Both the position numbers and the translations under genes were made by a program. The notes beneath the pieces are model-generated. The model saw only the letters and a program-made list of their open reading frames with translations. It searched no databases and was not told the DNA's origin. A stretch of DNA of 64,000 bases from a virus. Lineage: Duplodnaviria > Caudoviricetes. The stretch covers positions 3,687 to 67,686 of IMG/VR virus record IMGVR_UViG_3300010163_003556. One strand, 5' to 3'. Shown here piece after piece: positions 691 through 60,545 of this stretch. The first letter of the stretch is position 1. Every line of letters begins with the position of its first letter.

Positions 691-1829
691 ATGGTAACAT
701 TATCAAACGCCGATAAGGCGTTAAAAACTTTTTATCTCGGCGTACTCGCCGATCAGCTCAACGTGGGCGTAAACCCCTTGCTCGCGAAAATCGGTCAGAC
801 CACAGCGGATGTATGGGGCAAGGAGGTCAAAAAGCTCGCTCCTTACGGAATTAACGGCGGTATCGGCTCGGGCGAGGAAACCGACAACCTGCCCAAGAGC
901 GGCTCGAATAACTACGCGCAGTTCACGCTTACGCTAAAAAACCTGTTCGGGAAAATCGAGCTTTCCGATAAGGCTATCCGCGCATCCCAGAACAGTGCGG
1001 GCGCGTTCGTCAACCTGCTCAATGCGGAAATGGAAGGATTGCTTAAAGCGAGCAAGTTCAACTTCGGACGTATGCTTTACGGCGACGGCTCCGGACTTCT
1101 TGCAACGACCGTCGACAACGCAGGCACCGCAAACAACGTGATAACGGTAGACAACGTCAAGTGCCTTATGGAAGGTATGACTATCGACGTCTATAACGGC
1201 GCGGGAGTTAAGCAGGATATTTCGGGCGCACGTATTGCCCTGATTGACAGAACGAATAAAAACGTCGTTCTCGACAGAGCGGCAGCTTCGAAGATCGGTG
1301 CTGGTTACTGCATCTACGTTCAGGGTTCGAAAAACAATGAAATTACGGGTCTTGAAGCAATTTTCGGCGGAAGCGAGAATATATACGGATTGTCGAGAAA
1401 GGACTACACCTTCCTCACGCCTTATACCAAGACGATCAACGACACCGTTACGATAAGCGCGATTCAGGACGCTATCGACGCTATCGAGGAAAACGCGGGC
1501 GGCACGATTGACTTTATCGTTGCATCCTACGGAGTCCGCAAGCAGTACGTCGACCACCTCGCGGGAACCCGCACGAACGTGGATTATCTCACGCTCGACG
1601 GCGGCTACAAGGCACTCAGCTATTCGGGCATTCCTTTCGTCGCAGACAGATTCGTCGGCGAGGGCGATATGTATCTGCTCAACAGCGGCGACTTCAAGCT
1701 TCATCAGCTCTGCGACTGGCGTTGGCTCGAGGGAGAGAGCGGAAGCGTTCTCCATCAGGTACCCGGCAAGGCTTGCTATTCGGCGACCCTCGTCAAGTAT
1801 GCGGATTTGCTCTGCGAGCGTCCGTATGG
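691..1829 (+). pseudogene. Major capsid protein (HK97 fold), N-terminal 379 codons, interrupted by the prophage (ORF runs on to 1905 in prophage DNA)
   Basis: RBS GAGGAG. Capsid-like sequence (GGIGSGEETDNLP, LKNLFGKIELSDKAIRAS, FVADRF, YSATLVKYADLLCERP). After ERPY the ORF turns into AT-rich, A-tract sequence (GREKSLTKKGQKMG). Confidence 0.8.
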
Positions 1830-1845
1830 ACGGGAAAAAAGTCTA
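1815..1845. other. Putative attL junction (core GG at 1828-1829, within CCGT-ATGG-ACGG)
   Basis: MCP-like coding sequence stops here. ATGG is shared with the right junction (TGCC-ATGG-GGCA, 60296-60307). A GG crossover restores the reading frame. Confidence 0.65.
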
Positions 1846-2212
1846 ACGAAAAAAGGGCAAAAAATGGGGGTTTTTACCCATAAAAAGGGCATTTTTCAAG
1901 CCTAAAAATTGAAGAATAGACATTTTGACCTTTCAAGGTCTGAACAGTAGACAAACATTTCCGACAATTCAAAAAAAAGTTGCATTTTTAGCATTGTACG
2001 GTTTGTCTATTTTTTGACGATAAATAGCAACGGAAAGACCCTTATAAAAGGGCAACAATTAACCACGAAAACAACGGCTGAAACGGCAAACAAAGCCGTT
2101 CCCGATAAAGATAAATCCACCCACTTTGCAAACGGTTCAAGCGAACGGAGAGTTCGTGCGGGGCAAATATTAGAACCGAATGCCGAGTGGGTGAATTTTT
2201 TTTGCATTTTAG

Positions 2213-2269
2213 AAAAGTCATACTTTTGCGACTTTTGTCCTTTACAAAGTGAACCAAATATGCTAAAAT
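2213..2269 (+). promoter_or_regulatory. SigA-type promoter of the WYL gene with upstream inverted repeats
   Basis: TTTACA (2241-2246), 17 bp spacer, TAAAAT (2264-2269) with extended TG. AAAAGTC-N10-GACTTTT (2213-2236) is a candidate autoregulatory operator. Confidence 0.55.
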
Positions 2270-2299
2270 AAAGGGACTCTAAAATGGAGGTCCATAGGG

Positions 2300-3313
2300 A
2301 TGAGTGCTGAAAGCGTTTCAAAAATCAAGTACCTAAAAATATGGGACATACTCCGACAGGAAACGGACGAAGAGCATCCGATGACAACCCCTGACCTTTT
2401 GGCAAGGTTGGAAGAGAGCGGAATCAAGTGCGACCGTAGAACGCTCTATCGCAACATAGAGGAACTAAACGAATGCGGTTACGAAGTGCTGACCAAGGTA
2501 GGAAAACCGAACGGTTACTATGTGGTAGACCGTAGCTTTGACATACCCGAAATTCATATCCTAATGGACGCTGTGCAAGCGGCTAGCTTTATCACCGAGA
2601 AGAAGACTAAATTGCTTGTAGACAAAATAGCAAGGCTAGCAGGCAACAAGGCAGCCGAGGTTCTCAAGCAGAATATAGTGGACTTTGATACGGTGAAGAG
2701 TACGAATGAGAATATCTACTATTCGGTGAACGAAATAGCCACGGCAATCAACGAGGGACTGAAAATCACCTTCCAATACTTTGACTACAATGCTCAAGGT
2801 AAAAAAGTTTATAGGATGCGGAAGAGCGTTCCAACGGAGCGGAAGACATACAAGGTGAGTCCGCTCTCAACTGTGTTCAGTAGCGACAAATACTACCTAA
2901 TTTGCTACGATGACTACTACGACAATTTGCAACATTACCGAGTGGACAGAATGGATTCGGTGACGATGGTAGAAGAGCCGATAACAAAAACCGAGAAGAC
3001 AAAGCAGCTCAAGGTGAAAGAACACAAACAGCAAGTCTTTTGGATGTTCACGGGCAAGACAGAGCAAGTATCGTTCGCCGCCGACAAATGCCTCATCGAT
3101 GTGATGCATGACACATTCGGCGGAAAGGTTAGGATAAATGAAGGGGCAAACGACACGATAACATTCACAGCCAACGTGCAAGTCAGTCCGACCTTTATCG
3201 CATGGTGCTGTGCCTTTGGAAAGCAGTTGCTAGTAACAGCGCCCCAGAACGTTATTGAGCAAGTGAGAAACTATATAAACGACTTAAGTGGAAGATATGG
3301 AGGGAACAACTAA
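2300..3313 (+). CDS. WYL-domain transcriptional regulator (wHTH-WYL-WCX; BrxR/PafC-like)
   Basis: N-terminal wHTH (CDRRTLYRNIEEL), WYL core (KYYLICYDD...HYRVDRM) and C-terminal WCX-like region (FIAWCCAFG). Confidence 0.85.
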   Translation: MSAESVSKIKYLKIWDILRQETDEEHPMTTPDLLARLEESGIKCDRRTLYRNIEELNECGYEVLTKVGKPNGYYVVDRSFDIPEIHILMDAVQAASFITEKKTKLLVDKIARLAGNKAAEVLKQNIVDFDTVKSTNENIYYSVNEIATAINEGLKITFQYFDYNAQGKKVYRMRKSVPTERKTYKVSPLSTVFSSDKYYLICYDDYYDNLQHYRVDRMDSVTMVEEPITKTEKTKQLKVKEHKQQVFWMFTGKTEQVSFAADKCLIDVMHDTFGGKVRINEGANDTITFTANVQVSPTFIAWCCAFGKQLLVTAPQNVIEQVRNYINDLSGRYGGNN

Positions 3314-3402
3314 CCCATTAATTTTACGGCTATTCGATGAGATAAGAAAGACAATATCGATAATAATTTTTAGTTTTTCGACTACGAATTCCATACCGAG
3401 TA

Positions 3403-3451
3403 AATATCACCGTGATATTCCGTTGATTTTTGGCTTATTTTGTGGTAAAAT
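3403..3451 (+). promoter_or_regulatory. Promoter of the methyltransferase operon with a perfect palindrome
   Basis: AATATCAC-C-GTGATATT (3403-3419) directly upstream of TTGATT (3423-3428), 17 bp spacer, TAAAAT (3446-3451). Confidence 0.55.
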
Positions 3452-3524
3452 ATTTTATGGCTTCTTTTGGCAAGAAGAAATGTCGATAGAGTAAGGTGTA
3501 AGTATATTTTTTTAAGAGGTAAAT

Positions 3525-4484
3525 ATGGCTCGAAAGAAACAGTCAGATTATTCAGTTATATCATTTTTTTGTGGCTGTGGAGGCTTTGACTTAGGTTTTC
3601 AGGGCGGATTTGAATATAATGGTACTGCATACGATAAGCTCCCTTTTAATGTTATAGCCGCCTATGATTTTGACCCGCTTTGTGTGCAAACTTATAATGA
3701 CAACATTCATGAAGTTGCAGAGCAGCTAGATTTAGGCACAGCGGATGTTTCGAAAATGCCATATGCCGATATATTGGCAGGGGGATTCCCTTGTCAGGAC
3801 TTTTCACTTTGTGGGCCACTTCTTGGTTTAGAGTCCGAACGTGGACGATTATATTTGGCAATGAAAAGGTATATGAATTTTCATAAGCCCAAAATGGTCA
3901 TTGGAGAGAATGTATACAATTTGCTAAATATGAAAAATGGAGAAGTCTTAAAGCGAATTTTGAGTGACTTCGAAGAAGAAGGATATAAATTTACTGTTTG
4001 GAAAATGCCATGCAAAAAATATGGTATTCCCCAGATGCGCATGAGAATAATTGTGGTTGGCATAAGAGAGGACATTTTCGAACGAAAAGGCTTTCCAATT
4101 CCGCCCGAAGAGAGTAGTGATATTAAAACCATTGAATGGGCAATCGGCGACCTTATTAATGTTACTGATGAATCTATACCAAACCAAAGTCAGTATTTTC
4201 GAGCAAACAAAACCCCCGGTAACGGAGTGCAGGGTGATGAAGTAAGCAAAAGAGATCAGCCTGCTTATACCGTAAGGGCAAACTCACGTTCACATATTCA
4301 ATTCCATTACGAGTTGCCTCGACGGTTAACAGTTCGTGAATGCGCTAGAATACAAACATTCCCAGACACATTTGTATTTAAGCATAGTCTCACACGCAAT
4401 ATGCGGCAAATTGGGAATGCAGTTCCCCCGCTTTTAGCCTACAAGGTAGGATGTTCTGTAAAGAATTACTTGGTTAAAAAATAA
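3525..4484 (+). CDS. DNA (cytosine-5)-methyltransferase
   Basis: Motifs I (FCGCGG), IV (GGFPCQDFS), VI (ENV), VIII (QMRMR), IX (RRLTVRECARIQTFPD) and X (QIGNAVPP). Confidence 0.95.
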   Translation: MARKKQSDYSVISFFCGCGGFDLGFQGGFEYNGTAYDKLPFNVIAAYDFDPLCVQTYNDNIHEVAEQLDLGTADVSKMPYADILAGGFPCQDFSLCGPLLGLESERGRLYLAMKRYMNFHKPKMVIGENVYNLLNMKNGEVLKRILSDFEEEGYKFTVWKMPCKKYGIPQMRMRIIVVGIREDIFERKGFPIPPEESSDIKTIEWAIGDLINVTDESIPNQSQYFRANKTPGNGVQGDEVSKRDQPAYTVRANSRSHIQFHYELPRRLTVRECARIQTFPDTFVFKHSLTRNMRQIGNAVPPLLAYKVGCSVKNYLVKK

Positions 4485-4501
4485 CCGAAGGAGTAGAAAT
4501 A

Positions 4502-6847
4502 ATGGCTGACTCGTTTGTTGATATCACGCCAACCCCAAGAACATTGAGAATGTTGGGCGAAATCCCGTTCTCACCTTGGCAATGCTTTGCCGAGTTAATT
4601 GACAATGCGGTCGACGCATTTCTCGCAGATGATATGGAGCATGAAGACCGCCGAATTCAAATTATTTGGTCTCCTGAAAGGGTTGGACTTAAAGAGCGGA
4701 CCATCGAGATTATTGACAATGCCTGCGGCATGACGCTTGAGCAGATGACAAACGCTGTCAAAGCAGGTTATTCGGGAAACGACCCAATTAATAATTTGGG
4801 TCTCTTTGGAATGGGATATAATATTGCTACAGCTCGCCTTGGAGATAAATCTACAATTTATACTACGAGAGCAGGTGACGATAAATGGGTTGGTGTAGAA
4901 ATCGACTTTACCCAATTAATATCACAAAAGACATTCAAAACTCCTGTTGTTTATCGGGACAAGGAAGATATATCCGAACATGGAACTAAAATCATTATAT
5001 CGAAGTTGAACAATGGTATCTATAACGATATTTCCACCAAGACAACCGCAATTCGAAAGCAACTTGAAAATGTGTATTCGGTGCTTCTTGAAAAGCATAA
5101 TATTGAAATATATGTCCAAGGGCGGAGGCTTGTACCAAAAAAATACTGTGTTTGGTCGCCTGAAAGATATGTAATGAGAGATGGGCAACGAGTATATGCG
5201 GTTCAAAAAATAGACAGGGTACTCGGCGAAACCTACTTTGATATGGAACGTAATAGATATTTATCGCCAGAGCAAGAAGACGAGATAGAAATAGCAGTAT
5301 CAAGAGGCGAAGCGATTCCCCCTACAATTGTAAAAAGACAAAAACGACTTAAGGGATGGGTAGGAATTCAACGGTTCTTTTCGACCAATGATTACGGCAT
5401 AGATTTTGTAAGGAATGGTAGAAAAATATTAATTGCTAATAAAGATGCATTTTATTTTGAAGACGGGGCAACAGGTAGTTCAACCATTCAGTACCCTGTA
5501 GAGTTAGGTTCGACAGTCGGCGGACGCATCGTTGGTGTTGTCGAGGTGGATTACCTACTGCCAACATACCAAAAAAATGACTTTGTTAGAACGGACCTTT
5601 CATGGATACAAACTATGGAAGCAATTAGAGGTCAAGGCCCAATATTACCAAATGCTAGGAAAGCATATGGATATGCAGACAAGAATGAATCCCCTGTAGG
5701 AATTCTTGCAACAGCTTATCGCCGTCCAGACAAAGGTAGCAAAAACCTTGTATTACCTAAAGATGTTGCGAAGGCATTTGCGGATAGATTTTATAAGGGA
5801 GATGCTGAATACATATCGGATGAAAAATGGTTTCAAGCCGTTCGAGAAGCTGACCGAGATGTGGGTACTTTCGGGGCAGGTGAGGCAGGCGATGTCGACG
5901 TTGGGGATGCGCCGTCTGATGATGTGAGCGCATATTTTGGAGAGGACGAAGTAACTGAGGTTGAATCTCAAACTACCCACGAAGACGAACCACAAAAAGG
6001 GACTCCGACCCAAACAGCATCATCCAGTTGTGACGAATTGTTGCGGGCATCGGAAGAAAATGCCATTCTATCTCGCCAGTATGCATATAACCCCTATCCA
6101 TTAACCGTTAGAGCGCACAAAATGAAAAGTGATATTATTCGCTATAATGGGAAAAGAGTCCCTGCGGCGTTCTTTTCGGATGGAATAGAGTGCGATTTTT
6201 TCTATGATCCGAGGCATGAATTGTTAGCGCAATTCCCTTCTTGCAACCCTGAAAGTCTATTGATGATTTATCTCGCCAATAAGTTTGCGGCAAGAGATAG
6301 TGTAGGCGACATAGTCTCTATATACAGCGCATTAACAGTCTCGGAGTTAAAAGAAATGCGCGTAGATAAGAGTTCACTCAATGAGCAAGCAACGTTGTTT
6401 TTCGATGAGTTTAGAGAAAGACTCGAACTCGCACTGTCCCACAAGTATAGGGAAGTCATAGCTTGTCTAAAAGAATCCGTTGGCGAAGAGGAAGCAACAA
6501 TTACTGCTCTTCTAACCGAGCCAGACTTATTATCGGCATATAATGAAGACTCAGCCGAGGCAATAGGAATCATACGGTATGTACCATTGAACACTTTAAT
6601 TAGACTTGTGGATCGATTCCCCGAAAGTGTTTTTGATGGAATTGTGTTTAAGGCCAAATTCAACACCTTGCCCAACACGGGCAACGCAGATTCAATGGAG
6701 CGTATTAAATCGGAAGCAAAAGAAAGAATAGTTTCCATGTTGAAAGATGCTCTTCTAGTACAGGGAGAAAAAAGCGCACGATTGTCAAAGAATGAAATGA
6801 CAAAGTGTGCGTGGAGTATTGCTACCCTTAAAGGGGAGTTGAAATAA
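4502..6847 (+). CDS. GHKL (MORC/MutL-like) ATPase with long uncharacterised C-terminal region
   Basis: ELIDNAVDA (N box), IIDNACGM (G1), GLFGMG (G2), GTKIII. S5-like region GWVGIQR/GIDFVRNGRKI, acidic linker and helical C-terminus. Confidence 0.8.
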   Translation: MADSFVDITPTPRTLRMLGEIPFSPWQCFAELIDNAVDAFLADDMEHEDRRIQIIWSPERVGLKERTIEIIDNACGMTLEQMTNAVKAGYSGNDPINNLGLFGMGYNIATARLGDKSTIYTTRAGDDKWVGVEIDFTQLISQKTFKTPVVYRDKEDISEHGTKIIISKLNNGIYNDISTKTTAIRKQLENVYSVLLEKHNIEIYVQGRRLVPKKYCVWSPERYVMRDGQRVYAVQKIDRVLGETYFDMERNRYLSPEQEDEIEIAVSRGEAIPPTIVKRQKRLKGWVGIQRFFSTNDYGIDFVRNGRKILIANKDAFYFEDGATGSSTIQYPVELGSTVGGRIVGVVEVDYLLPTYQKNDFVRTDLSWIQTMEAIRGQGPILPNARKAYGYADKNESPVGILATAYRRPDKGSKNLVLPKDVAKAFADRFYKGDAEYISDEKWFQAVREADRDVGTFGAGEAGDVDVGDAPSDDVSAYFGEDEVTEVESQTTHEDEPQKGTPTQTASSSCDELLRASEENAILSRQYAYNPYPLTVRAHKMKSDIIRYNGKRVPAAFFSDGIECDFFYDPRHELLAQFPSCNPESLLMIYLANKFAARDSVGDIVSIYSALTVSELKEMRVDKSSLNEQATLFFDEFRERLELALSHKYREVIACLKESVGEEEATITALLTEPDLLSAYNEDSAEAIGIIRYVPLNTLIRLVDRFPESVFDGIVFKAKFNTLPNTGNADSMERIKSEAKERIVSMLKDALLVQGEKSARLSKNEMTKCAWSIATLKGELK

Positions 6848-8505
6848 TGGCATCCTTTTTGACAGACAACATAATGAAGGGAACGGATTGGCGTGCGCTC
6901 GAAAGGGCGGTCGCTCGCCTTATGACGTTAGCTGGATGGGACAATGTCGAGGTTGTTGGAGAAACAGGCGATAAGGGTGCAGACATTATAGGAGTAAGAA
7001 AGCAGAACGGACATAAGCAGACATGGGTGGTGCAAGTCAAAGCAAAGACTATGGGTGAAATGGTCGGAGCAACAGCGGTACGTGAGGTTATGACAGCGAT
7101 GTCGGTTTATGGAGCTAATGTTGCAGCAGTAGCTACAAATGCAGACTTCACGGAAAGTGCAAGAAAACGGCAGAAAGAATTACAATCACAAGGGTTTGAC
7201 CTAAAATTGTGGAATGGAAGATTTTTGTTGGATTTACTAGCGCAACTCCCTGAATATAAGGCGTTAAGACCTTTGCGCCCATATCAAGAAGATATTGTCA
7301 ACAAGGCAAAAAGTATTTACGAAAACCATGGAAAACGTGCTTTATACATAGTTGCCACAGGGTTGGGAAAGACAGTCATTGCATCTAGAATCACCAACTA
7401 TTTGTGGTCAATGGGGAACAGACGGTTTTTAGTATTGTGCCATGCTCAAGATTTAGCCCTGCAATTGGAACAAAGTTTCTGGAAGGAAATTTCAAAGGAT
7501 GTTCCGACAAGGACGTTTTTTGGTGGACGTCCGCCACTTATATATGAAGGTATAAATTTTGGTCTGTATCAAACATTTACTAATTATTTAAGCGGCATAG
7601 AGGAAAAAGATTTCGATGTTGTCATAGTGGACGAAGCTCATCACGCAATGGCAAATGGTTTTACCACTTGCCTTTCGTCATTGAATCCAAATTTTCTCAT
7701 AGGCATGACTGCTACTCCATGGCGAGGTGATGGGAAATCAATGAGCAATATTTTCGGAGAGCCAATCGCTACGGTATCCTTGGTTGATGGGATGCGTGAT
7801 AAGTACCTAGCTGACATTGATTATAGGCTTTTTTGCGACAACATAGATTGGGATAGTATTCATGAGATGTCAAGCAAAAAACACAGTATTCGGGACTTGA
7901 ATAAGAGGTTATTTTTACCACAGCGCGATGAAGCTATTATTTCACAGATACAAAAAGCTTGCAAAGAGATCCCCAACCCAAGAATTATAGTTTTTACTCC
8001 GTCCATAGAACACGGAGAAAAATTTGCTCGTTTATTGACTATATCAGGAATCTCATGTGCCTCGCTATCAGGAATGGATAAAATCACTCGGAGAAGAAAC
8101 CTTTTAGATTTTTCCACAGGGAAAATTCAAGCAGTTACAGCAGTTGACATTCTGAACGAGGGTATAGATGTCCCAGATGTTAATATATTGGTATTCCTAC
8201 GAGCAACACATTCTAGGCGGATTTTCGTTCAGCAGTTGGGACGCGGATTGAGAATAAGTCCAACGAAAAAGAGTGTTGTGGTTCTTGACTTCGTTTCGGA
8301 TATTCGGCGTATAGCTGAAGTCATCCAAATGGATAGAGAAGCTAGAGAAAAATGTATGGATTCCGAAACGATGTATCTGCGAAACGGGCTTGTCACATTT
8401 AGCGACCAAAAAGTGGGTAGTTTCATGATGGAGTGGCTTGCAGATATTGCAGATGTAGCAAATTGTGATGAAAACGAAAAACTTTCATTCCCGGAGGATT
8501 ATTGA
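6847..8505 (+). CDS. Mrr-like PD-(D/E)XK nuclease fused to SF2 (ResIII-type) helicase
   Basis: N-terminal ERAVARL...GDKGADI...VQVK...TNADFT (Mrr_cat pattern). Helicase motifs ATGLGKT, DEAHH, TATPWRGD, NEGIDVP and QQLGRGLR. Translationally coupled to the ATPase gene. Confidence 0.85.
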   Translation: MASFLTDNIMKGTDWRALERAVARLMTLAGWDNVEVVGETGDKGADIIGVRKQNGHKQTWVVQVKAKTMGEMVGATAVREVMTAMSVYGANVAAVATNADFTESARKRQKELQSQGFDLKLWNGRFLLDLLAQLPEYKALRPLRPYQEDIVNKAKSIYENHGKRALYIVATGLGKTVIASRITNYLWSMGNRRFLVLCHAQDLALQLEQSFWKEISKDVPTRTFFGGRPPLIYEGINFGLYQTFTNYLSGIEEKDFDVVIVDEAHHAMANGFTTCLSSLNPNFLIGMTATPWRGDGKSMSNIFGEPIATVSLVDGMRDKYLADIDYRLFCDNIDWDSIHEMSSKKHSIRDLNKRLFLPQRDEAIISQIQKACKEIPNPRIIVFTPSIEHGEKFARLLTISGISCASLSGMDKITRRRNLLDFSTGKIQAVTAVDILNEGIDVPDVNILVFLRATHSRRIFVQQLGRGLRISPTKKSVVVLDFVSDIRRIAEVIQMDREAREKCMDSETMYLRNGLVTFSDQKVGSFMMEWLADIADVANCDENEKLSFPEDY

Positions 8506-9077
8506 TGGGACAGCGTGTTGTTATTCCACCTACTGTAAAGGCACAAGTTGTAAGTAGGGTAAGAGAGCAATTAGAAGAAGCGGGGTATTTCTCCCAAGGT
8601 TTATTTAATAGCACCGTCATGCTCGATGATATGGCGGCGGATTCCCAAATTGGTGGCGTACTTGCTCAATATATGAGAAAGGACAAAGTCCGTACCTATA
8701 TCAAAGATTGTATAATTGGAAAGTATGCCAAAAAGAAAAACGGAGAACTTCTTTCTACCGAAAGACTCAAGTTTGAATTGGAAAAAAGAGAAGGAACCGT
8801 GTCGCTTCACGCCGAAAAAAACCAAGTTGTAACTTTCATAAATGAAAACGATGGGTGTTTTATTTTTGCAGCCAAAGGGACAGTATTAAAATGGGAATCA
8901 GCATTACGAAAAGTGTTAGAGCTTCGGGTGCAGATAGATGCAGGGCAGGAAGGGATGCAAGTAAAGACCTATCTTTTCCTTTCAAATACAGGTAGGACGC
9001 TAACAGACGGTGAACGACAAAACCTAAATAGGACATTAGGTCTCGTAAACGTGAAAGTGATAATTATTAACGCATAA
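8505..9077 (+). CDS. Hypothetical protein, last gene of the methyltransferase-ATPase-helicase operon
   Basis: RBS GGAGG and TGATG stop/start coupling; followed by a terminator. No family recognised. Confidence 0.7.
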   Translation: MGQRVVIPPTVKAQVVSRVREQLEEAGYFSQGLFNSTVMLDDMAADSQIGGVLAQYMRKDKVRTYIKDCIIGKYAKKKNGELLSTERLKFELEKREGTVSLHAEKNQVVTFINENDGCFIFAAKGTVLKWESALRKVLELRVQIDAGQEGMQVKTYLFLSNTGRTLTDGERQNLNRTLGLVNVKVIIINA

Positions 9078-9092
9078 ATATAACGATACAAT

Positions 9093-9120
9093 AAAAGCGA
9101 CCATAACGGTCGCTTTTTTT
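9093..9120. terminator. Bidirectional intrinsic terminator
   Basis: AAAAGCGACC-ATAAC-GGTCGCTTTTTTT between convergent genes. Confidence 0.8.
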
Positions 9121-11365: not shown

Positions 11366-11624
11366 ATTCGAAACCTCCTTTTTTTATTTCCCAAGGGGGT
11401 TGTATAGTAGCGTACACACGACTATTTGGCAAATGGTTTCGAGAGAAAAAACCAACAAATCTTTCAAAAATAAAATTACGATTAGTACAAATGTTGTACG
11501 GGAAAAAAGGCAACAAATGTTACAATATAATAGATGATGCTATTGAATGCGAAAAGAAATCATCAAAATCATTAAACGGCACATATTGGTGGGGCAATGC
11601 AACAAATCACAGGGAAAACAAGGC

Positions 11625-13457
11625 ATGAGCGAAGACAAGAAAACTAGGCGAGAAGAGCTACGAGAGCTTTATCGCCAAGACCAAGATACTAGTAGCAAAA
11701 CCTTTATTCCCGCCAAAGAAAAGGTGAATATTTATGATGATACAATGCAGCTCCGAGTCTGTGCTTATTGTCGCGTATCGACTGACAACGATGCACAGCT
11801 ATCGTCATACGAATTGCAGAAGAAACACTATGAGAGTTTTGTAGGGGAGCATCCGACATGGCACCTCGAAAAGATTTATGCAGATGAGGGTATATCGGGA
11901 ACATCACTCAAACACCGTGACCAATTCAACGAGATGATAGCCGAATGCCGAAAAGGGAAGTACGACCTAATCGTAACAAAGGCGGTCTCGCGTTTTGCTC
12001 GAAACCTTGTAGACTGCATTTCACTTATAAGAGAATTACGAAATCAAAATCCGCCTGTAGGCGTTTATTTTGAAACCGACAAGCTGTTCACCTTATCGGA
12101 AGAATCCGAACTAAAACTATCAATCTTCGCCACTTTCGCCCAGGAAGAGTCACAGAAAAAGAGCGAGTCAATGAACTGGTCGCTGAAAGAACGATTCAAG
12201 CACGGACAGCTATTAACTCCAGAGTTATTCGGTTATAGAAGACCGAGGGATGAGTTGGGCAACTACATAAAGTATGCGAAGCTAGAAATCGAAGAGTCGG
12301 AGGCAGCCGTTGTGCGTTTTATATATAGCGCATTTTTGGCAGGCTACTCGCCCGAAAATATAGCCGAAATGCTGACCGATATAGGTGTGCCAACAAAATC
12401 GGGAAACACATCGTGGAATACAGGCGGAATAGGATACATTCTGCGAAACGAAAGATATTGCGGTAGCGTTTTAACTTGGAAGACATTCACCGCCGATGTC
12501 TTTGAGCATAAGAAAAGAAAGAACAACCATGATAGGGACCAGTACCTTTATAACGATTTCCACCCCGCAATAATAAGCGTGGAGCAGTACGAGGCAGTTC
12601 AGCAATTATTGGTCGACCGTAGGCATGGAATGCGTGGTGGATACAATGTGATGCACGTCATCGAAAATGGGGTATTCCAAGGATATGTGCCTATTAATCA
12701 CCATTGGGTAAATGACGATCCAAACGAATATTATGCAGCATCAAATACAGTCCAAAAGCAACGCCAAGAACAGCGGATACGCCGTTCGACATTCAGCGCA
12801 TTCGACTTAACGGGATACCAAGTAGTGCGAGGCTTATTCTTGACCGCTAGGTCGGAGCAACCCTGCATGACCGTGTACCAAGACAAGTTATTTTTCAATA
12901 GTGCTTGTACGAAGAAGCTGACCGACATCGGACACATACAATTACTGCTACATCCAACCGAACGGAAGATGGCAATACGACCTTGTCAAAGGACGGACGT
13001 GTACAGCATCAGGTGGAGCAAAATGGACGGTAAACCACTAGCCATGAAGACGATAAATTGCCCACACTTTATCAAAGCATTGATGCAGATAATGGAATGG
13101 AATCCAGAGTACAGCTATAGGATTATGGGAACGTGGATAGTAAAGGGCAATGACCGAATAATGACTTTTAATCTCTCTAACGCAGTACCGATGATGCAAG
13201 TGCAAGGGGACGAACCGTCTTCGAGGAAGAAAAGTGTGATGGTATGCCCCGAAGAGTGGGAGTCGAGTTTCGGTGATGAGTTCTATGAATTCAGCCTGCA
13301 AAACAACCTTTATTATGCGGCGGATAATGCGCCGATAAACAGCGGTGCGCATAGTGTGGTGGCAAGCGGTACGGAACAGCTTTCACTACCGACAACAGAA
13401 GATGTTATGACGAGTTACGAGTTAATCAAAAAAGGGAGGGAGAACCCTAATGAATGA
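11625..13457 (+). CDS. Large serine recombinase with an extra C-terminal domain
   Basis: RVCAYCRVST catalytic motif, IYADEGISGT, SRFARN and recombinase domain (YILRNERYCG). The C-terminal ~200 aa resemble the three downstream proteins. Start placed at MSEDKK; the ORF is open from 11547. Confidence 0.88.
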   Translation: MSEDKKTRREELRELYRQDQDTSSKTFIPAKEKVNIYDDTMQLRVCAYCRVSTDNDAQLSSYELQKKHYESFVGEHPTWHLEKIYADEGISGTSLKHRDQFNEMIAECRKGKYDLIVTKAVSRFARNLVDCISLIRELRNQNPPVGVYFETDKLFTLSEESELKLSIFATFAQEESQKKSESMNWSLKERFKHGQLLTPELFGYRRPRDELGNYIKYAKLEIEESEAAVVRFIYSAFLAGYSPENIAEMLTDIGVPTKSGNTSWNTGGIGYILRNERYCGSVLTWKTFTADVFEHKKRKNNHDRDQYLYNDFHPAIISVEQYEAVQQLLVDRRHGMRGGYNVMHVIENGVFQGYVPINHHWVNDDPNEYYAASNTVQKQRQEQRIRRSTFSAFDLTGYQVVRGLFLTARSEQPCMTVYQDKLFFNSACTKKLTDIGHIQLLLHPTERKMAIRPCQRTDVYSIRWSKMDGKPLAMKTINCPHFIKALMQIMEWNPEYSYRIMGTWIVKGNDRIMTFNLSNAVPMMQVQGDEPSSRKKSVMVCPEEWESSFGDEFYEFSLQNNLYYAADNAPINSGAHSVVASGTEQLSLPTTEDVMTSYELIKKGRENPNE

Positions 13458-40603: not shown

Positions 40604-40607
40604 CCCC

Positions 40608-41488: not shown

Positions 41489-41683
41489 ATGGAAAAGAAA
41501 ATCAGCAAGAAAATCGCAGATGAACTCTTAAAGATAGCGATGGAAAACAGCGTGGAAATCGAAGAACGCGGCGACCTCAAAAGACACTACATCGACAGCG
41601 AGGACTTTATCGAAGTACCCGTATGGGGAATCGAAGAGATGCTCAAGCAAGCATACGAACTCGGCAGAAAGGCAGGTAAGTAA
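41489..41683 (+). CDS. DUF6900-like small protein
   Basis: LLKIA...DSEDFIEVPVWGIEEMLKQAYELG resembles the D..DF..V.VW.I...L..AY..G pattern. Confidence 0.55.
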   Translation: MEKKISKKIADELLKIAMENSVEIEERGDLKRHYIDSEDFIEVPVWGIEEMLKQAYELGRKAGK

Positions 41684-41684
41684 G

Positions 41685-41990: not shown

Positions 41991-42013
41991 GGTAGAAAGA
42001 AGACAACCAACGA

Positions 42014-42035
42014 ACCGTCCGAAAGGGCGGTTTTA
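42014..42035 (+). terminator. Intrinsic terminator
   Basis: ACCGTCC-GAAA-GGGCGGT-TTT. Confidence 0.75.
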
Positions 42036-42059
42036 TTATTTCAAAAAATGGAGGTAAGA

Positions 42060-43376: not shown

Positions 43377-43932
43377 TGTCATCGAAGGACACGCAGCCGT
43401 GTTCGATTCGTGGAGTGAAACGCTCGGCGGAATCTTTCCGTTTCAGGAAATAGTCCGAAAGGGTGCATTCAACGAAAGCATCGGCAAAGACGATATTCGT
43501 GCGCTGTTCAACCACGATCCGAATTATGTACTCGGACGCAACCGAGCGGGGACGCTTGAACTCGTGGAAGACGATATCGGCTTGCGTGTGCGAATAACTC
43601 CGCCCGATACGACTTGGGCAAGGGATTTGCAAGCAAGCATTCGCCGAGGCGACATCACGCAAATGTCCATAGGGTTCATAGTCGAAGACGATAAGTGGTC
43701 GACAAGGGACGGAATGGACGTAAGGGAAATTCGAAAGGTGCAGTTGTTCGATGTGAGCCCCGTAACTTTCCCCGCCTACACCGCCACGGATGTGGGAGTG
43801 AGAGCGATGGAAGAGTACAACGGCTACAAAGCCGAACAGCGCAGTAAGGCGGAGGAAGCAGAAAAGACCGCCGAGAAAGCAAAACAGCAAGCAAAACTCA
43901 AAAGCTTGCAATCCAAATTCAAAAACATTTAA
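43303..43932 (+). CDS. HK97-family prohead protease
   Basis: IEGHAAVF, LFNHD, MSIGF and DVSPVTFPAY. Confidence 0.92.
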   Translation: MEKGKKELRMLPMRELRVNESESGNVIEGHAAVFDSWSETLGGIFPFQEIVRKGAFNESIGKDDIRALFNHDPNYVLGRNRAGTLELVEDDIGLRVRITPPDTTWARDLQASIRRGDITQMSIGFIVEDDKWSTRDGMDVREIRKVQLFDVSPVTFPAYTATDVGVRAMEEYNGYKAEQRSKAEEAEKTAEKAKQQAKLKSLQSKFKNI

Positions 43933-43949
43933 TCGGAGGAAAACGAATT

Positions 43950-45239: not shown

Positions 45240-45258
45240 AGAAAGGGGGTGATCGAGC

Positions 45259-45549
45259 GTGTTGACGTTACAAGAAACAAAGGACTTTCTCCGCTTGGAC
45301 GGGGATGACGAAGATGCGCTCATATCCTCGCTAATCATCACGGCAAAGGAATTGACCGAAGAAGTGTTGCGGCGCAAGCTCACGGAGTTTGAGGAAGTCC
45401 CCGAACCCGTGCATCAGGCAATGCTCATCGTAACGGCAACCTTATACGAAGAACGGCAAGTGGCAAAGGACAAGTCGGGCGTGGACATCAAGGAAACGCT
45501 CGACCTTGTCCGCCGAATGCTGTTCGCTTACAGACGGGAGGCGTTTTGA
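45259..45549 (+). CDS. Head-tail connector (gp6-like)
   Basis: TLQETKDFLRLDGDDEDALISSLI...AMLIVTATLYEER. Confidence 0.85.
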   Translation: MLTLQETKDFLRLDGDDEDALISSLIITAKELTEEVLRRKLTEFEEVPEPVHQAMLIVTATLYEERQVAKDKSGVDIKETLDLVRRMLFAYRREAF

Positions 45550-45998
45550 TGGACATTGGAAGATTGAACCGAAGAGTGGAAATCTTGGAGTTCCGAAAGC
45601 ATCGTGATGAGTACGGCGGCGAAATAGGCGAATGGGTAACCGTGGCAAAAGCGTGGGCAACCATTGTCCCCGTAAGCGGAACGGAGCAGATGTTCGCACA
45701 GCAAGTCACAGCCGAAAAGGTTGTGAGAATAACCGTACGGTTCTGTGATTGGCTGACGGTCTTGCACCGCATCAAGTACGGGAACAAGCTCTACGAGATA
45801 GTCGGAGAGCTTGACAATGAAACTGCCCACAAAGCCACGATACTAAATGCGAAGGAGTTGGTGAGCGATGGGTTACAGCGCAAAGCAGAGGAAAGTCAAA
45901 ACGAGCATAGAGGGCGCAAGTGCGCTTGTCAAAGACCTCAAAGCAATGGAGGATGCGGCGGCAAGCGTGATGATGGAGGGAGCGAAAGCGGGTGGTAA
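45549..45998 (+). CDS. Head-closure / head-tail adaptor protein
   Basis: IGRLNRRVEI...WVTVAKAWA...RIKYGNKLYEI; 3' end overlaps the next gene. Confidence 0.8.
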   Translation: MDIGRLNRRVEILEFRKHRDEYGGEIGEWVTVAKAWATIVPVSGTEQMFAQQVTAEKVVRITVRFCDWLTVLHRIKYGNKLYEIVGELDNETAHKATILNAKELVSDGLQRKAEESQNEHRGRKCACQRPQSNGGCGGKRDDGGSESGW

Positions 45999-46269
45999 GA
46001 TTGCACTCGAAGACGCAAAAAGGAATTGCCCTGTCGATACGGGGGCATTAAAGCAGAGTCTGCATCTCACCGAGGGCAAGGCAACTGCAACGAAAGCGAC
46101 CGTGCAAGTGGACTATGATAAGTCGCTGAAATATGGGACGCACGTTGAACTTGGAGCAAGGGGCAGACCTGCAAATCCTTTTCTCCGAAATGCCGTTGAC
46201 AACAATCAAAATCAAATCAACGAGGCAATCGTGTCGGAGATATCAAGGGCAGTAGGGAGGAAGATATGA
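45868..46269 (+). CDS. HK97 gp10-like tail completion protein
   Basis: AKRNCPVDTGALKQS...HVELGARGRPANPFLRNA. Confidence 0.85.
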   Translation: MGYSAKQRKVKTSIEGASALVKDLKAMEDAAASVMMEGAKAGGKIALEDAKRNCPVDTGALKQSLHLTEGKATATKATVQVDYDKSLKYGTHVELGARGRPANPFLRNAVDNNQNQINEAIVSEISRAVGRKI

Positions 46270-46676
46270 AAGATATATGCCAAGCAGTATACGAGAAAAT
46301 GTGTTCGGATTACGGCATTTCATGTAGCGTTGGTTGTCGCATATATCCTATCGTATTGCCCGAAGATGCGCCGTTGCCCGCCATCGTTTATGCGCCCGTC
46401 CTAGCGAATTATGACTCCGCATTACAAGGCGACACAGGGTTCGTAAGGCAAACGATACAGTTCGTCTGCCACGATAAAACCTACAAAAAATCAAGGGAAC
46501 TCTCCCGAAAGGTAAAGCGATTATTTCAAGATTACCACGGGGATATGTGCGGACTAACGATACAAGCCGTGTTCATAAAGTCCGACTACGAATATAACGG
46601 GAACACGGCATTGAAATTCGATACGGACGAGTACATGTCAAGCATTGAATTTGAGTTTTTATTCAACGAAAAATAG
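46266..46676 (+). CDS. Tail terminator (DUF3168-like)
   Basis: RIYPIVLPEDAPLPAIVY; position between gp10 and the tail tube gene. Confidence 0.7.
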   Translation: MKDICQAVYEKMCSDYGISCSVGCRIYPIVLPEDAPLPAIVYAPVLANYDSALQGDTGFVRQTIQFVCHDKTYKKSRELSRKVKRLFQDYHGDMCGLTIQAVFIKSDYEYNGNTALKFDTDEYMSSIEFEFLFNEK

Positions 46677-46686
46677 GAGGCAAAAT

Positions 46687-47085
46687 ATGGCGGTAGCAGG
46701 AAAGAACGGAAAAGTCGTCATTGGTGAATCGGCAACCAAAAAGGTGGTCGGCATAAAGAATTGGTCGCTCGAACTGTCCTTGGATACGCTCGAAACCACC
46801 GCACTCGGTGACGATTGGAAGAACTATATAACGGGACTGAAAGAGTGGTCGGCATCGAGCGAGGGCGACTACGAAGTACCCGTGGACGCAGAAGGACAGC
46901 AAGCATTGCAAGATGCATTCCTCAATGGTACGACCGTAACGGTCAAGCTCTATGTGGATGGAACGAACTACTACAAGGGCGAGGCATACATAAACAGCCT
47001 GTCCATTGAAGACCCCGTGGATGACGTTGTGTCTATCAGCATCGAATTCACGGGAACGGGTGCGCTGACCTTTGAAACGGCTTAA
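46687..47085 (+). CDS. Major tail tube protein
   Basis: WSLELSLDTLETTALGDDWKNYITGLKEWSAS...VVSISIEFTGTGAL. Confidence 0.85.
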   Translation: MAVAGKNGKVVIGESATKKVVGIKNWSLELSLDTLETTALGDDWKNYITGLKEWSASSEGDYEVPVDAEGQQALQDAFLNGTTVTVKLYVDGTNYYKGEAYINSLSIEDPVDDVVSISIEFTGTGALTFETA

Positions 47086-47102
47086 AACGGAGGAAGTAAA
47101 AA

Positions 47103-47420
47103 ATGAAAAACGGCGTAACAATCAATCTCGACAAACCGAGAACACTTCGCTATGGGATGAATGCCTTGGCGAAAATCGAAGACATAACGGGCAAGTCAAT
47201 TCTCTCCCTTGACCTTAACAAGGTAGGAATCAAAGACCTGCTTGCAATCGTGTACGGCGGTCTTTATCACGAAGACAAGTCGTTGACTCCCGAAAAGGTT
47301 GGCGACTTAATTGACGAATACTCCAACCTTAACGAGATAGCGGAGAAAATCGGCGAGGCATTAACCGCAGCATTCGGAGAACCGAAAACGGAGAAGACCT
47401 CAACGCCGGGGGAAAAGTAA
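47103..47420 (+). CDS. Tail assembly chaperone (lambda G-like)
   Basis: Position between tail tube and tape measure; ends at slippery GGGGGAA. Confidence 0.75.
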   Translation: MKNGVTINLDKPRTLRYGMNALAKIEDITGKSILSLDLNKVGIKDLLAIVYGGLYHEDKSLTPEKVGDLIDEYSNLNEIAEKIGEALTAAFGEPKTEKTSTPGEK

Positions 47421-47734
47421 CCGCCGCTTTTGATTTATCGGCATTATGCGATCAAGCCGTGGTAGCGTGGGGTGTTGACCCACTCGTGGTAGGCGAATAC
47501 ACACCGTATGAGTTAACGCTGATAGCAAAGCAGAAAAGGAACGAGGAACAAACCGAGTTTGAAAATCTGCTGTGCCTAGCATGGCATACGGAGGCACTTG
47601 CACGACAGCGCAAGATGCCACGGCTTGAGAAACTGCTCAAAGAGGCAAGGAAGAAACCGAACCAAAAGGCAAGCAGTAAAAGCGATGCAATACTAAAAGC
47701 AATGGCGGCGGCAAAGGGCGTCATAATCAAATAA
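47408..47734 (+). CDS. Tail assembly chaperone -1 frameshift extension (GT-like)
   Basis: GGGGGAA at 47408-47414; the -1 frame is open from there (GKVTAAFDLSALCDQAVVAWG...) to 47734. Confidence 0.65.
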   Translation, partial: GGKVTAAFDLSALCDQAVVAWGVDPLVVGEYTPYELTLIAKQKRNEEQTEFENLLCLAWHTEALARQRKMPRLEKLLKEARKKPNQKASSKSDAILKAMAAAKGVIIK

Positions 47735-47747
47735 GGGAGGTGAGGAT

Positions 47748-50438
47748 ATGGCGGTTATTAGAAACCTAGTCGTGAAAATAGCGGCGGATATATCCTCGCT
47801 TTCGAAAGGACTACAGGACGCACAAAAGAAAATACAAAAGGTATCGGCTACTTTTACGAGAGCAGGCACAAAGCTCACAGCAAGCATAACAGCACCGCTG
47901 ATGGCACTAGGCACGGCGGCGGTTAATGTGTCGCAGCAGTTCGAGCAGTCGATGGCGAATGCGGCATCTGTCGCAGGCGCAACGGGAGATGATTTCGCAC
48001 GAATGACCGCTCTCGCCAGAGAGATGGGTTCAAAGACCGTGTTCTCGGCAAGCCAAGCGGCGGACGCACTCTACTATATGGCATCAGCAGGTTATAAGGT
48101 TGACCAAATGGCTGACTCCATACAGGCAACCCTTAACCTTGCATCAGCAACCCAGAGCGACCTTGCATTTACAACCGACACAGTAATCTCCACGCTGAAC
48201 CAGTTCGGCTTGGAGGCGAACCAAGCGGAAAGGGTAACCAACGTATTCGCAGCGGCAATCGGTAATTCAATGGCGAACATGGAGAAGCTCTCGAACTCGA
48301 TGAGCTATGTCGGACCAGTAGCGAACAGCTTGGGCTACTCGATAGAAGAAACCACGGGTGCGCTGTCTGTCCTTTATAACGCGGGCTATGACGGCTCGAC
48401 CGCAGGCACATCGCTCCGACAATCGCTCGTAGCACTTATGAATCCGACATCTGCCGCACTTGACGTGTTCAAGGAATTGGGTTTGACCTATGAAGAGGTG
48501 AACCCTGCGACAAACGACCTGGCAACAATTATTGACAGACTCGGTGCCGCAGGAATGGACACATCCCAAGCAATGAAGGTGTTCGGAGCGAGAGCAGGTC
48601 CCGGCATGCTTGCGCTGTTATCGGCGGGCGGCGATGCGGTCAGAGATATGACCGAATCCATCACGGGAACAAATAAAGCCACGGAAATGGCGGAAGTCCA
48701 ACTTGATACCTTACAGGGTCAAGTCAAGATTTTGAAGTCGGAGTTGGAAGAAATCGCCATATCGTTTGGCGACGTGTTAATTCCCATAATCAGACAGTTC
48801 ATCCAAAAGTACATCTCGCCCTTGACGGCGAAGCTGATGGGGCTGTCGATGGGAACGAAAAAGAACATCGTAACCATAGCATTATTGGCGGCGGCTATAG
48901 GACCGCTTTTATTAGTTGTCGGAAAACTCATAGGCAGTATCGGTACGATAATCAAGGTCGGCTCGTTGCTGTTTTCAAAGGTCGGCTTGATAATAGCGGC
49001 GATAGCCGCTGTTGCAGGCGTCGTTGTCTATCTGTGGAAGACGAACGAAGAGTTCCGAGATGCGGTAACAAAAATATGGGACAGGGTTAAATCCGTTGTC
49101 CTCAAAGCAGCCGACGCAATCAAGGCGTGGTGGGCGAAAAACGGCGAGAAAATAATCAGCGCAGTCGTTAAAGCATTAAAGGTACTTTGGAATGCGGTAA
49201 AAGCAAGGTTCAATCTCATTCTCAAAATAGCCAAAAAGGTATGGCCGTATGTCAAGATGATAGTCGTGGATACGGTAAAAGCCATAAAGCAGTTTTGGGA
49301 GAAGAACGGCAAAAAGATATGGAATACGGTGAAAACCATATTCACAAACATTTGGATGTGCGTAAAGAGCGCATTCAGCATTATAAAAGACTCGCTCAAC
49401 AAATTCTTTTCGTATGTCAAGCCGATTTGGGAAAAGCTGAAAACCTTGTTTGCCTCGCTGTGGGACACATTGGTACAGCTTTACGAAACGCTGAAACCCG
49501 TGTTCGACCTAATAGGCGGACTTGTTATGACCTTATGGGGAGTGGTGTCGAGCGTACTCGGAGCGATTATAGATGCACTCGGACCGTTCCTCGAAGCGGT
49601 AATCGACGTAGCGAACGCAATACTTGACATCATCAAAATCATTTGCGCTGTTCTCCGTGGGGATTGGTCGTCCGCTTGGGAGTATATGAAAGACTTCGCA
49701 GGCAACATATGGTCTGCAATCAAAAACATCTTCCTGGGCATTTGGGAGTTTATCAAAGGCTTTGGAGAAAACATCGTCTCGTTCTTCGGGAATTGCGGCG
49801 AAACAATCGGCAACCTTTTCAAAAGCGTTTGGGAAGGTGTAAGCGGTTTCTTTTCAAACATTTGGGAAGGAATCAAGTCCATGTGCGGATGGATATGGGA
49901 TACCCTAACGGGACTATTCAATAAGATAGGCGACTTTTTCAAAGACCTATTCAAAGATGCGTTTAATTGGGGCAAAAACCTTATTTCCAACATCGGCGAT
50001 GGTATCAAGAAAGGTTGGGATTGGGTAGTAGACGGAGTCAAGTCAGTAGGTCAATCCATAAAGGATTTTCTCGGATTCGGTTCACCGACCAAGAAAGGTC
50101 CGGGGCATACGGCAGACGAATGGATACCGAACCTAATGGACATGATGGCGAACGATATGTATGCCAACATCCCGATGATCCAAAGAGCCGCAATCGAAGT
50201 GGCAAGTACGCTTGGAATATCTACCTCGCCGAACCGAGCTATGGTCGGTATGGGCAGCAGTCCGAACGGCGACCTTATAAATGGGTTGCTACAAGGAATG
50301 GCGGCAATGAACGGAATGGACGGTACGGATGACAAGGAATTGATTTTGCAAATAGACGGACAAACTTTTGCACGGTTAATGCTCCCCAAGTTGTCGAGAG
50401 AATACAAGCGAAATGGTGTAAATTTACAGGAGGTGTGA
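47748..50438 (+). CDS. Tail tape measure protein (TP901 family)
   Basis: 896 aa; FEQSMANAASV, AREMGSKTVFSASQAA, AGTSLRQ; Trp/Phe-periodic amphipathic repeats. Confidence 0.92.
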   Translation: MAVIRNLVVKIAADISSLSKGLQDAQKKIQKVSATFTRAGTKLTASITAPLMALGTAAVNVSQQFEQSMANAASVAGATGDDFARMTALAREMGSKTVFSASQAADALYYMASAGYKVDQMADSIQATLNLASATQSDLAFTTDTVISTLNQFGLEANQAERVTNVFAAAIGNSMANMEKLSNSMSYVGPVANSLGYSIEETTGALSVLYNAGYDGSTAGTSLRQSLVALMNPTSAALDVFKELGLTYEEVNPATNDLATIIDRLGAAGMDTSQAMKVFGARAGPGMLALLSAGGDAVRDMTESITGTNKATEMAEVQLDTLQGQVKILKSELEEIAISFGDVLIPIIRQFIQKYISPLTAKLMGLSMGTKKNIVTIALLAAAIGPLLLVVGKLIGSIGTIIKVGSLLFSKVGLIIAAIAAVAGVVVYLWKTNEEFRDAVTKIWDRVKSVVLKAADAIKAWWAKNGEKIISAVVKALKVLWNAVKARFNLILKIAKKVWPYVKMIVVDTVKAIKQFWEKNGKKIWNTVKTIFTNIWMCVKSAFSIIKDSLNKFFSYVKPIWEKLKTLFASLWDTLVQLYETLKPVFDLIGGLVMTLWGVVSSVLGAIIDALGPFLEAVIDVANAILDIIKIICAVLRGDWSSAWEYMKDFAGNIWSAIKNIFLGIWEFIKGFGENIVSFFGNCGETIGNLFKSVWEGVSGFFSNIWEGIKSMCGWIWDTLTGLFNKIGDFFKDLFKDAFNWGKNLISNIGDGIKKGWDWVVDGVKSVGQSIKDFLGFGSPTKKGPGHTADEWIPNLMDMMANDMYANIPMIQRAAIEVASTLGISTSPNRAMVGMGSSPNGDLINGLLQGMAAMNGMDGTDDKELILQIDGQTFARLMLPKLSREYKRNGVNLQEV

Positions 50439-60169: not shown

Positions 60170-60192
60170 ATAATATAATTAATAAGGAAAAA

Positions 60193-60224
60193 GGACGGTT
60201 CGAGCAACATCGAACCGCCTATTT
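60193..60224 (+). terminator. Intrinsic terminator after the recombinases
   Basis: GGTTCGA-GCAACA-TCGAACC stem followed by TATTTT. Confidence 0.55.
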
Positions 60225-60289
60225 TATTCCCACAATATTAGACAAACACCAGGGCGGAATTGGGAGAATATCGAATAGACAAACCGCCT

Positions 60290-60315
60290 CGGCAATGCCA
60301 TGGGGCAGGCGAAGC
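60290..60315. other. Putative attR junction (core GG at 60303-60304)
   Basis: Switch to flank-type coding sequence in frame GQAKLT; shares ATGG with attL. Confidence 0.65.
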
Positions 60316-60545
60316 TCACGTTCTCGCGCGAAAGAGCGAGAAGCTTCTTTGCGGTCGGCTTCGACTCCGCAGGCGGAAGCGCGGTCGAGCCTCAGATAGT
60401 CGTTCCCGGCGGACACGTCGTTCAGCCCGCGAATCCGACTAAGGCTTCGTTTACGTTCGACGGCTGGTACCTCGACGGCAAGAAATTCGATTTCGCAGCC
60501 GATACCGTCGACCGCGACGTTACGCTGACTGCTTCCTGGCTCTGA
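60303..60545 (+). pseudogene. C-terminal remainder of the interrupted MCP, including an InlB B-repeat (Flg_new/PF09479-like) domain
   Basis: GQAKLT continues ...CERPY; then VGFDSAGGSAVEPQIV.PGG.V.QP.NPTKASFTFDGWYLDGKKFDF...V..DVTLTASW, a textbook B-repeat. No good RBS before the ATG at 60300. Confidence 0.75.

Follow-up and report, generated by a model that had tools for sequence, protein, structure and literature searches.

The window analysed here is a stretch of 64,000 nt from the IMG/VR virus record IMGVR_UViG_3300010163_003556; all positions given below are those of the whole stretch. It contains a gene for a major capsid protein (MCP) which is split in two by a prophage of more than 58 kb. 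Taken as a whole, the data are best explained, with good confidence, by the targeted integration of this phage through a serine recombinase into the MCP gene of an operon of the FpGTA I kind, FpGTA being the gene transfer agent (GTA) of Faecalibacterium prausnitzii. The crossover would fall on a C-N dinucleotide, and the operon is likely to be switched off. We propose that a temperate siphovirus uses a large serine recombinase to enter a nearly invariant motif near the 3' end of the MCP gene, C-(E/D)-(R/K)-P followed by (M/I)-G-Q-A-K, with the crossover between both halves. The operon struck would comprise TerL, a small open reading frame (ORF), a P22-type portal, a scaffold protein, the MCP and four to five neck or tail-hub genes. 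Two reasons for the choice of target may act alone or together: the motif could be a conserved and dispensable landing pad, or disabling a particle system linked to lysis could benefit the prophage. Judged from the junctions, the disruption looks targeted and is probably reversible. Features are collected in Table 1.

The ORF at 691–1905 (404 aa) codes for a major head protein: its residues 3–376 match positions 4–377 of the 396 in phrog_14242 (E 4e-53). It departs from the consensus of its homologues after ...CERP, at position 1824. Up to this point it is 83–87% identical to uninterrupted homologues of 456–479 aa. A second ORF, at 60300–60545, begins 130 nt behind two large serine recombinase genes; it starts MGQAKLTF... 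and carries a Flg_new domain (PF09479, E 2.5e-13). These three results, the family match, the break in the consensus and the Flg_new piece, bear out a preliminary description of the window, according to which the MCP ORF is split and its end resumes beside two serine recombinases. Joining 691–1824 to 60300–60545 gives an open ORF of 459 aa which reads ERP-M-GQAKLTF through the join. The restored protein aligns there without gaps to the homologues P0002, P0012 and P0016, so the two pieces are collinear, as in other genes split by prophages.

Relatives of this MCP in the protein collection number in the thousands; lengths and junction residues were judged on the best 120. About 110 of these have 456–479 aa with a C-terminal Flg_new domain, and a few are natural forms of 386–390 aa which lack this domain. 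Some 118 are uninterrupted and read through the break as CERP-M-GQAKLTF, mostly with Flg_new at the C-terminus, rare variants having Ile for Met or Ala for Gly. This alignment had been set beforehand as a test of the split, and the homologues do run on as GQAKL past ERP. None of the approximately 118 has Tyr after the Pro, a residue found in this position only in the product of the window and in another interrupted copy (P0018). Lost with the break are Q382, A383, K384 and F387, four residues without variation in 39 homologues, some of which lack Flg_new. An AlphaFold2 model of the intact homologue P0002 is weak (mean predicted local distance difference test score 61.6, below 50 for residues 336–379); the sole part of it we have used is a predicted strand at 383–387, also lost by the break. 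The truncated MCP gains in exchange a tail of 26 residues encoded by the phage, when 1825–1905 is read in frame. An assembly artefact is not the cause, as the same architecture with two junctions is found on single long contigs elsewhere: G001, where the junctions are about 59 kb apart, G003 and the mini-remnant L016.

In order to locate the crossover, we have gathered junctions from related phages whose recombinases are 85–93% identical to those of the window. Left junctions come from 12 distinct host alleles or contigs (the window, L001, L016, L017, L018, L035 and L065–L070), right junctions from eight (the window, L007, L012–L016 and L024). All 12 left junctions have a proline codon CCN followed by TATGG, and their host MCPs are just 42–83% identical to that of the window. 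All eight right junctions have a conserved phage arm ending in AAT-R-C, a variable base N, one of the codons ATG, ATA, ATT, ATC, TGC or AAC, and then GGN CAR. The codon after N tracks the host subfamily: TGC is found in attR of L014 and L015 and also in the uninterrupted relative L019. In fact, phage arms which are identical over 90 nt precede different codons. Two Logan contigs stop precisely with the final base of the P arm, and a contig from a related phage (run X1) aligns to the window from exactly 1825.

Since TATGG is constant on the left and the codon on the right tracks the host, TAT would be derived from the phage and the codon after N from the host. By this comparison, host sequence ends at 1824 and resumes at 60300, which assigns 1825–1827 (Tyr) to the phage and 60300–60302 (Met) to the host. 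As both features hold in every interrupted copy, the crossover is probably the C-N dinucleotide of the proline codon, and excision would restore ERP-M-GQ, not ERP-Y-GQ. A two-base core made of C and N predicts the same N on both sides. It is found in the three genomes which have both junctions besides the window: T/T in G001, C/C in G003 and C/C in G005. With this crossover, the empty site would read GAGCGTCC[G/C]ATGGGGCAGGCGAAG and the circular junction GGCAATGC[C/G]TATGGACGGGAAAA. Both phage arms (1825–2210 and 60218–60297) carry repeated TAGAC(A)/GTCTAA motifs, possibly extra sites at which the recombinases or a directionality factor bind.

The same capsid codon has been struck in at least 11 different host MCP alleles, and it is not the only site used. 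An identical WYL protein, P0188, stands behind three kinds of junction: the present capsid site (L035), a second capsid site near codon 343, after CDW (L034, L038), and a site in TerL near codon 281, after ...IEP (L036, L037, L039–L042). The positions of the last two sites are approximate, they are not exact crossovers. Both share a left-end arm of about 260 nt which starts TTACTTG, differs from the arm of the present site and is absent from the window. Three capsid genes (L016, L065, L067) contain two insertions; the second element ends at codon ~343, and just about 110 nt of the gene are left between them. In L016 one of the insertions is reduced to a mini-remnant of 5 kb (1–5040): attL, the first 37 codons of the WYL gene fused to recombinase 1, recombinase 2, one cargo gene and attR.

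Deletions are also found in the operon. In L066 (900–1030), TerL, ending in ...VHVIKP, is fused directly to capsid codon ~344, and the portal, the scaffold and most of the capsid gene are deleted. The arrangement resembles what recombination of the TerL site with the second capsid site should yield, an event that would have destroyed the cluster permanently. In L015 (7323–9704; the same region as L020), capsid residues 1–268 are fused in frame to recombinase 2 from residue ~9, giving an ORF of 794 aa; neither recombinase 1 nor the body of the phage is present in what is probably the remnant of a deletion. Three kinds of junction, double insertions and deletions thus indicate that the operon is a repeated target and that some events destroy it for good. 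Given that one codon is struck in at least 11 alleles, and that sister phages strike a second MCP site and TerL, the choice of target has most likely been selected.

A simpler possibility is that the site is a neutral landing pad: a conserved motif in a dispensable operon, with no selected role, whose restoration by excision serves just the lytic cycle of the phage. Phages with serine integrases commonly sit in conserved genes, and this site is among the most conserved stretches of a widespread gene. The N-terminal part of the MCP gene (691–1824) is 84% identical between the window and L002, an uninterrupted cluster, and the adjoining cluster genes (60548–62840) only 45–51%, so that the MCP gene would be either far more constrained than its neighbours or exchanged. 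On the other hand, phages with the identical WYL protein and a different left-end arm strike two further sites of the same 10-kb operon, where double insertions and deletions of the recombinase type pile up. Such a concentration exceeds what one conserved motif explains, as judged without statistics against other conserved genes. We therefore regard the neutral pad as conceivable but rather doubtful. The most far-reaching reading is more tentative still: gut temperate phages would carry interchangeable serine recombinase modules, each aimed at a different essential gene of the host's GTA-like operon (the capsid gene twice, TerL), and the gene-transfer particles, together with the lysis of cells linked to them, would be off in lysogeny and on after excision. 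Two more split capsid genes have been seen in other genomes of the order of G001. In G061 the gene is in two pieces (C40:15507–16094 and C10:4–597), the contig ending near residue 190, and in G025 (C5:156565–157685) two capsid pieces are adjacent and overlap, as in a frameshift. They may represent further insertions or decay.

Returning to targeted integration, its effect on the operon would be twofold. In the integrated state, the MCP would lack its invariant last strand and Flg_new, with the phage tail in their place, and five downstream genes would be cut off from the operon start by 58.5 kb of DNA ending in a terminator. For these two reasons, the particle operon is most likely off while the prophage is integrated. 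A polar effect on the five genes is likely in view of three features: the terminator-like hairpin between recombinase 2 and attR, the lack of any plus-strand promoter match between this hairpin and the gene at 60548, and the start of this gene only 3 nt after the capsid stop codon, as in L002. Precise excision would, by the logic of the sequence, rebuild the MCP of 459 aa.

Several points weigh against this interpretation. The cluster is known from its genes alone, as regards both the production of particles and the packaging of DNA, and its likeness to FpGTA I is drawn from the published description of that system. The loss of MCP function is deduced, and the fused tail keeps the Gly and the Lys of the motif; natural MCPs without Flg_new also exist. 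Excision and the exact cut are read only from the comparison of junctions. The dinucleotide GG is common to both junctions of the window, in register, and is compatible with the logic of conservative recombination. The two copies of the proposed core do not match in the window (CG at 1823–1824, CC at 60298–60299), both encoding Pro. The flanks of the cluster are not uniform: uvrA adjoins it in just two of the 14 loci examined (L002, L058). Finally, five pattern scans for attP and attB, three in IMG/VR and two in JGI metagenome contigs, have found neither. A scan with the P-arm pattern gave just two chance matches besides L007, and scans of IMG/VR for ends of the second arm type found nothing. 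The only sequencing run of use, from a gut metagenome and containing 5% of the sampled words, gave one contig of 2 kb on 600–3400. This contig is the left end of a related phage, aligned from 1825, and presents no joint across the site.

One reading of the core mismatch is a locked-in prophage, with excision blocked by a single base and a capsid gene permanently broken in this lineage. For the phiC31 integrase, att sites recombine when they have the same central dinucleotide, and sites with a mismatch of one core base recombine at a low level (PMC3936721). After integration at mismatched sites and subsequent replication, attL would have the host core and attR the phage core, or vice versa. Such a rare event is a possible origin of the CG/CC difference, as are a later synonymous change or a consensus error. 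Excision may thus be less efficient in this lysogen, and decayed remnants of the same phage do exist (L015, L016). Nevertheless, every gene examined in the phage and in the cluster is open, the difference could stem from a polymorphism or from one error in the assembly or consensus, and the low level of mismatched recombination is itself documented, so a permanent lock seems unlikely to us.

The nature of the interrupted cluster has also been considered. IMG/VR classes the whole record as a provirus of 67.7 kb, which begins at the start codon of TerL; the 3.7 kb before the window contain TerL (Terminase_6N), a gene of 91 aa and a P22-type portal, according to Pfam matches (Terminase_6N, P22_portal) on L006. 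Gene order downstream of the capsid gene is the same as in L002 and 12 other genomes. In the uninterrupted L002, the same eleven genes span about 10 kb, with uvrA on one side and ordinary host genes on the other, and in L001 the cluster lies behind GAPDH. We have dropped the idea of a fixed chromosomal position, as uvrA adjoins the cluster only in L002 and L058. No match to integrase, replication, repressor or lysis families is found among the genes neighbouring the cluster in L001 and L002. Sampling of 81 genomes from the order of G001 finds the capsid gene in 33 (41%, at species level), nearly always as a single copy and with 39–78% identity, and the order of the cluster genes is kept in all 12 loci fetched. 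A chromosomal operon of about 10 kb that encodes TerL, a portal, a scaffold protein and the MCP, and no functions for integration, replication or regulation, has the make-up of the FpGTA type. By its gene content and distribution, the cluster is thus a phage-derived particle operon of the FpGTA I kind, chromosomal in many gut Clostridia, and no second prophage; it is likely to be a GTA-like machine for gene transfer.

The preliminary description had been right about a prophage of 58.5 kb with serine recombinases in the capsid gene of a podovirus-like cluster (P22-type portal), in such a way that the frame may be restored. It had called the outer cluster a second, podovirus-like virion cluster; this cluster is widespread, single-copy, about 10 kb long and without integrase, and is no second phage. 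If the cluster were instead a second, defective prophage or a satellite that forms capsids, with one mobile element lying within another, this would fit the classification of the record as one provirus and the different flanks of the cluster among genomes. We consider it improbable in view of the neighbouring genes in L001 and L002, of a distribution (once per genome in 41% of the sampled species-level genomes, with divergent sequences and conserved order) which is the pattern of an old resident, and of the same make-up in FpGTA I.

As for the crossover, the preliminary description had located the break at 1827/1829 and 60303/60305 with a GG core: the split is real, the coordinates are probably not right. 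Its arithmetic is correct, since a join at GG gives an open frame of 459 aa and one at ATGG is frameshifted. Crossovers at the CC of positions 1–2 of the Pro codon and at the AT or TG of the shared ATGG, where all joins are frameshifted, have also been considered and rejected. A crossover at GG (1828–1829/60303–60304), the sole dinucleotide in register common to both window junctions which keeps the Gln, would imply a host allele with TAT (Tyr), a P arm ending in ATG, and CCGTATGGGCAGG and GCCATGGGACGGG as empty-site and circular junctions; it is very improbable, because no uninterrupted homologue of the ~118 has Tyr, TAT is constant in 12 attL with divergent host alleles, the attR codon varies with the host subfamily, including Cys as in L019, nearly identical P arms precede different codons, and contigs end after GAATAC, ahead of that codon.

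Prophages of this kind are known. SPbeta is inserted in spsM of Bacillus subtilis and moved by SprA/SprB, and skin is inserted in sigK (PMC4191935, PMC5499854). As in SPbeta/spsM, a prophage with large serine recombinases lies within a coding gene and in the same orientation, and precise excision would rebuild the frame; from these features, the mechanism would be that of a gene-splitting serine-integrase prophage of the SPbeta/spsM group. The differences from SPbeta/spsM are that the prophage splits a capsid gene in a phage-derived particle operon rather than a gene for sporulation or the envelope, that it has a pair of overlapping recombinase genes instead of one, that no directionality factor has been identified and that the core copies differ. 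No developmental excision is known for the window prophage. SCCmec likewise encodes two distinct large serine recombinases in adjacent genes which are maintained together (CcrA/CcrB), an arrangement similar to that of recombinases 1 and 2.

Mobile elements which split virion genes of another phage-type element until they excise are known as well. Helper-embedded phage-inducible chromosomal islands (PICIs) repeatedly enter late or virion genes by way of their integrases (Tommasini, Mageeney & Williams 2023, PMC10111431). These are small satellites with tyrosine integrases which reside in a helper prophage, whereas the present element is a full-size phage with serine recombinases, in a host-resident cluster on which it has no visible dependence. 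It encodes replication, packaging, head and tail functions and a holin itself, and the interrupted cluster is no prophage, so it is not a satellite of this class.

FpGTA I is an operon of 10.5 kb and ten ORFs, with particles of ~40 nm which contain 8.4–8.9 kb of host DNA (Borodovich et al. 2026, PMC12946183). GTA-like packaging has also been reported in Christensenellaceae (PMC12946183). The present cluster shares with FpGTA I a size of about 10 kb, about ten ORFs, the series TerL, small ORF, portal, scaffold and MCP with podovirus-type hypothetical genes, and the lack of integration and replication genes. FpGTA I packages 8–9 kb at random and has a second locus for tail and lysis; the likeness of our cluster is one of gene content. 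A term search of the text of PMC12946183 shows no prophage insertion in an FpGTA operon, its one "prophage integration site" concerning a different prophage. Our literature searches turned up no full phage directed at the capsid and terminase genes of a host operon of the GTA-like kind.

GTA-like packaging has newly been recognized as a major route of DNA mobilization in gut Firmicutes (PMC12946183). If temperate phages break structural genes in particle operons systematically and reversibly, lysogeny would govern DNA donation and the lysis linked to GTAs. A conflict of a new kind, virus against domesticated virus, would be the result, and phages would in effect turn gene transfer on and off in Christensenellales and related gut Clostridia. 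In addition, these phages offer a natural set of att sites for serine integrases, whose core base varies with the host codon, useful for studying tolerance to core mismatches.

By its gene content, the insert is a complete temperate siphovirus. Besides the genes in Table 1, it codes for a DNA polymerase, helicase, primase, HNH nuclease and sigma-like regulator, for methyltransferases and tail proteins, and for a holin; Mtd_N-type fibre genes are annotated from the syntenic genes of its relative L024. All its genes have the same orientation as the outer cluster. Neither an endolysin nor a recombination directionality factor was identified among them. Both recombinases match PF00239, PF07508, PF13408 and the integrase family phrog_95, the domains of large serine recombinases, the PF13408 match of recombinase 1 being under the Pfam cut-off (23.2 vs 25.3 bits). 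They are ~29% identical to each other. Recombinase 1 is 91–93% identical in relatives and recombinase 2, always paired with it, 85–90%; an exact look-up of the window's recombinase 2 gave no record. A third large serine recombinase (11547–13457, 636 aa) has Resolvase and Recombinase domains and no zinc-ribbon match, and lies far from both att sites.

Table 1. Features of the window, in order of position.
Feature	Position	Strand	Evidence or remarks
Scaffold protein gene, outer cluster	2–679	+	Synteny with L001/L002; 5' end just before the window
Host part of the MCP gene, codons 1–378, ending ...CERP	691–1824	+	phrog_14242, E 4e-53
attL copy of the proposed crossover dinucleotide (CG, Pro codon positions 2–3)	1823–1824	+	12 attL compared with 8 attR junctions
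Start of the phage P' arm, begins TATGG	1825–1905	+	Same arm start in all relatives
Integrated temperate siphovirus-type prophage, 58,475 bp, co-oriented with the cluster	1825–60299	+	PHROGs/Pfam
WYL-domain regulator, first gene of the prophage left end	2300–3313	+	Pfam WYL/HTH_11/WCX
Prophage packaging/head/tail module	37111–50438	+	
TerL (prophage)	37111–38661	+	PHROGs (module set: phrog_9, phrog_12, phrog_10, phrog_1533)
Portal (prophage)	42048–43376	+	PHROGs
MCP (prophage)	43950–45239	+	PHROGs
Tape measure (prophage)	47748–50438	+	PHROGs
Large serine recombinase 1, 519 aa	57022–58581	+	Resolvase + Recombinase + Zn_ribbon_recom; phrog_95
Large serine recombinase 2, 535 aa	58562–60169	+	Overlaps recombinase 1 by 20 nt
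Intrinsic-terminator-like hairpin and T run, behind recombinase 2 and ahead of attR	60196–60217	+	
Phage P arm with TAGACAAA-type repeats	60218–60297	+	Alignment with the arms of L007 and L012–L016
attR copy of the crossover dinucleotide (CC)	60298–60299	+	Second base differs from attL
Host C-terminal MCP piece: conserved MGQAKLTF strand, linker and Flg_new display domain	60300–60545	+	PF09479
Downstream cluster genes, all open	60548–64000	+	103 aa, 182 aa, 482 aa, 35 aa (62855–62962), DUF7934 (62972 to window end)

The left end of the prophage, with the WYL regulator, also carries defence-like cargo. The cargo slot (2213–9120 in the window) differs among phages with a common WYL protein, and the defence cargo appears to be swappable: a C5 methyltransferase and a MORC-like ATPase in the window, two methyltransferases and an AAA_5 protein in L034, type I restriction-modification genes in L066 and L067. 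A second variable slot lies between recombinase 2 and attR, behind the motif CAGTAATTTA (L012–L016, L024–L033). It contains Tag (3-methyladenine glycosylase I), a membrane protein or other genes, and no gene in the phages of the window and L007. A look-up of the Tag protein as a route to attP ended in unrelated mobile elements. In fact, 1588 blocks of the collection index an identical Tag protein of 196 aa, and the mobile elements around it are many and unrelated.

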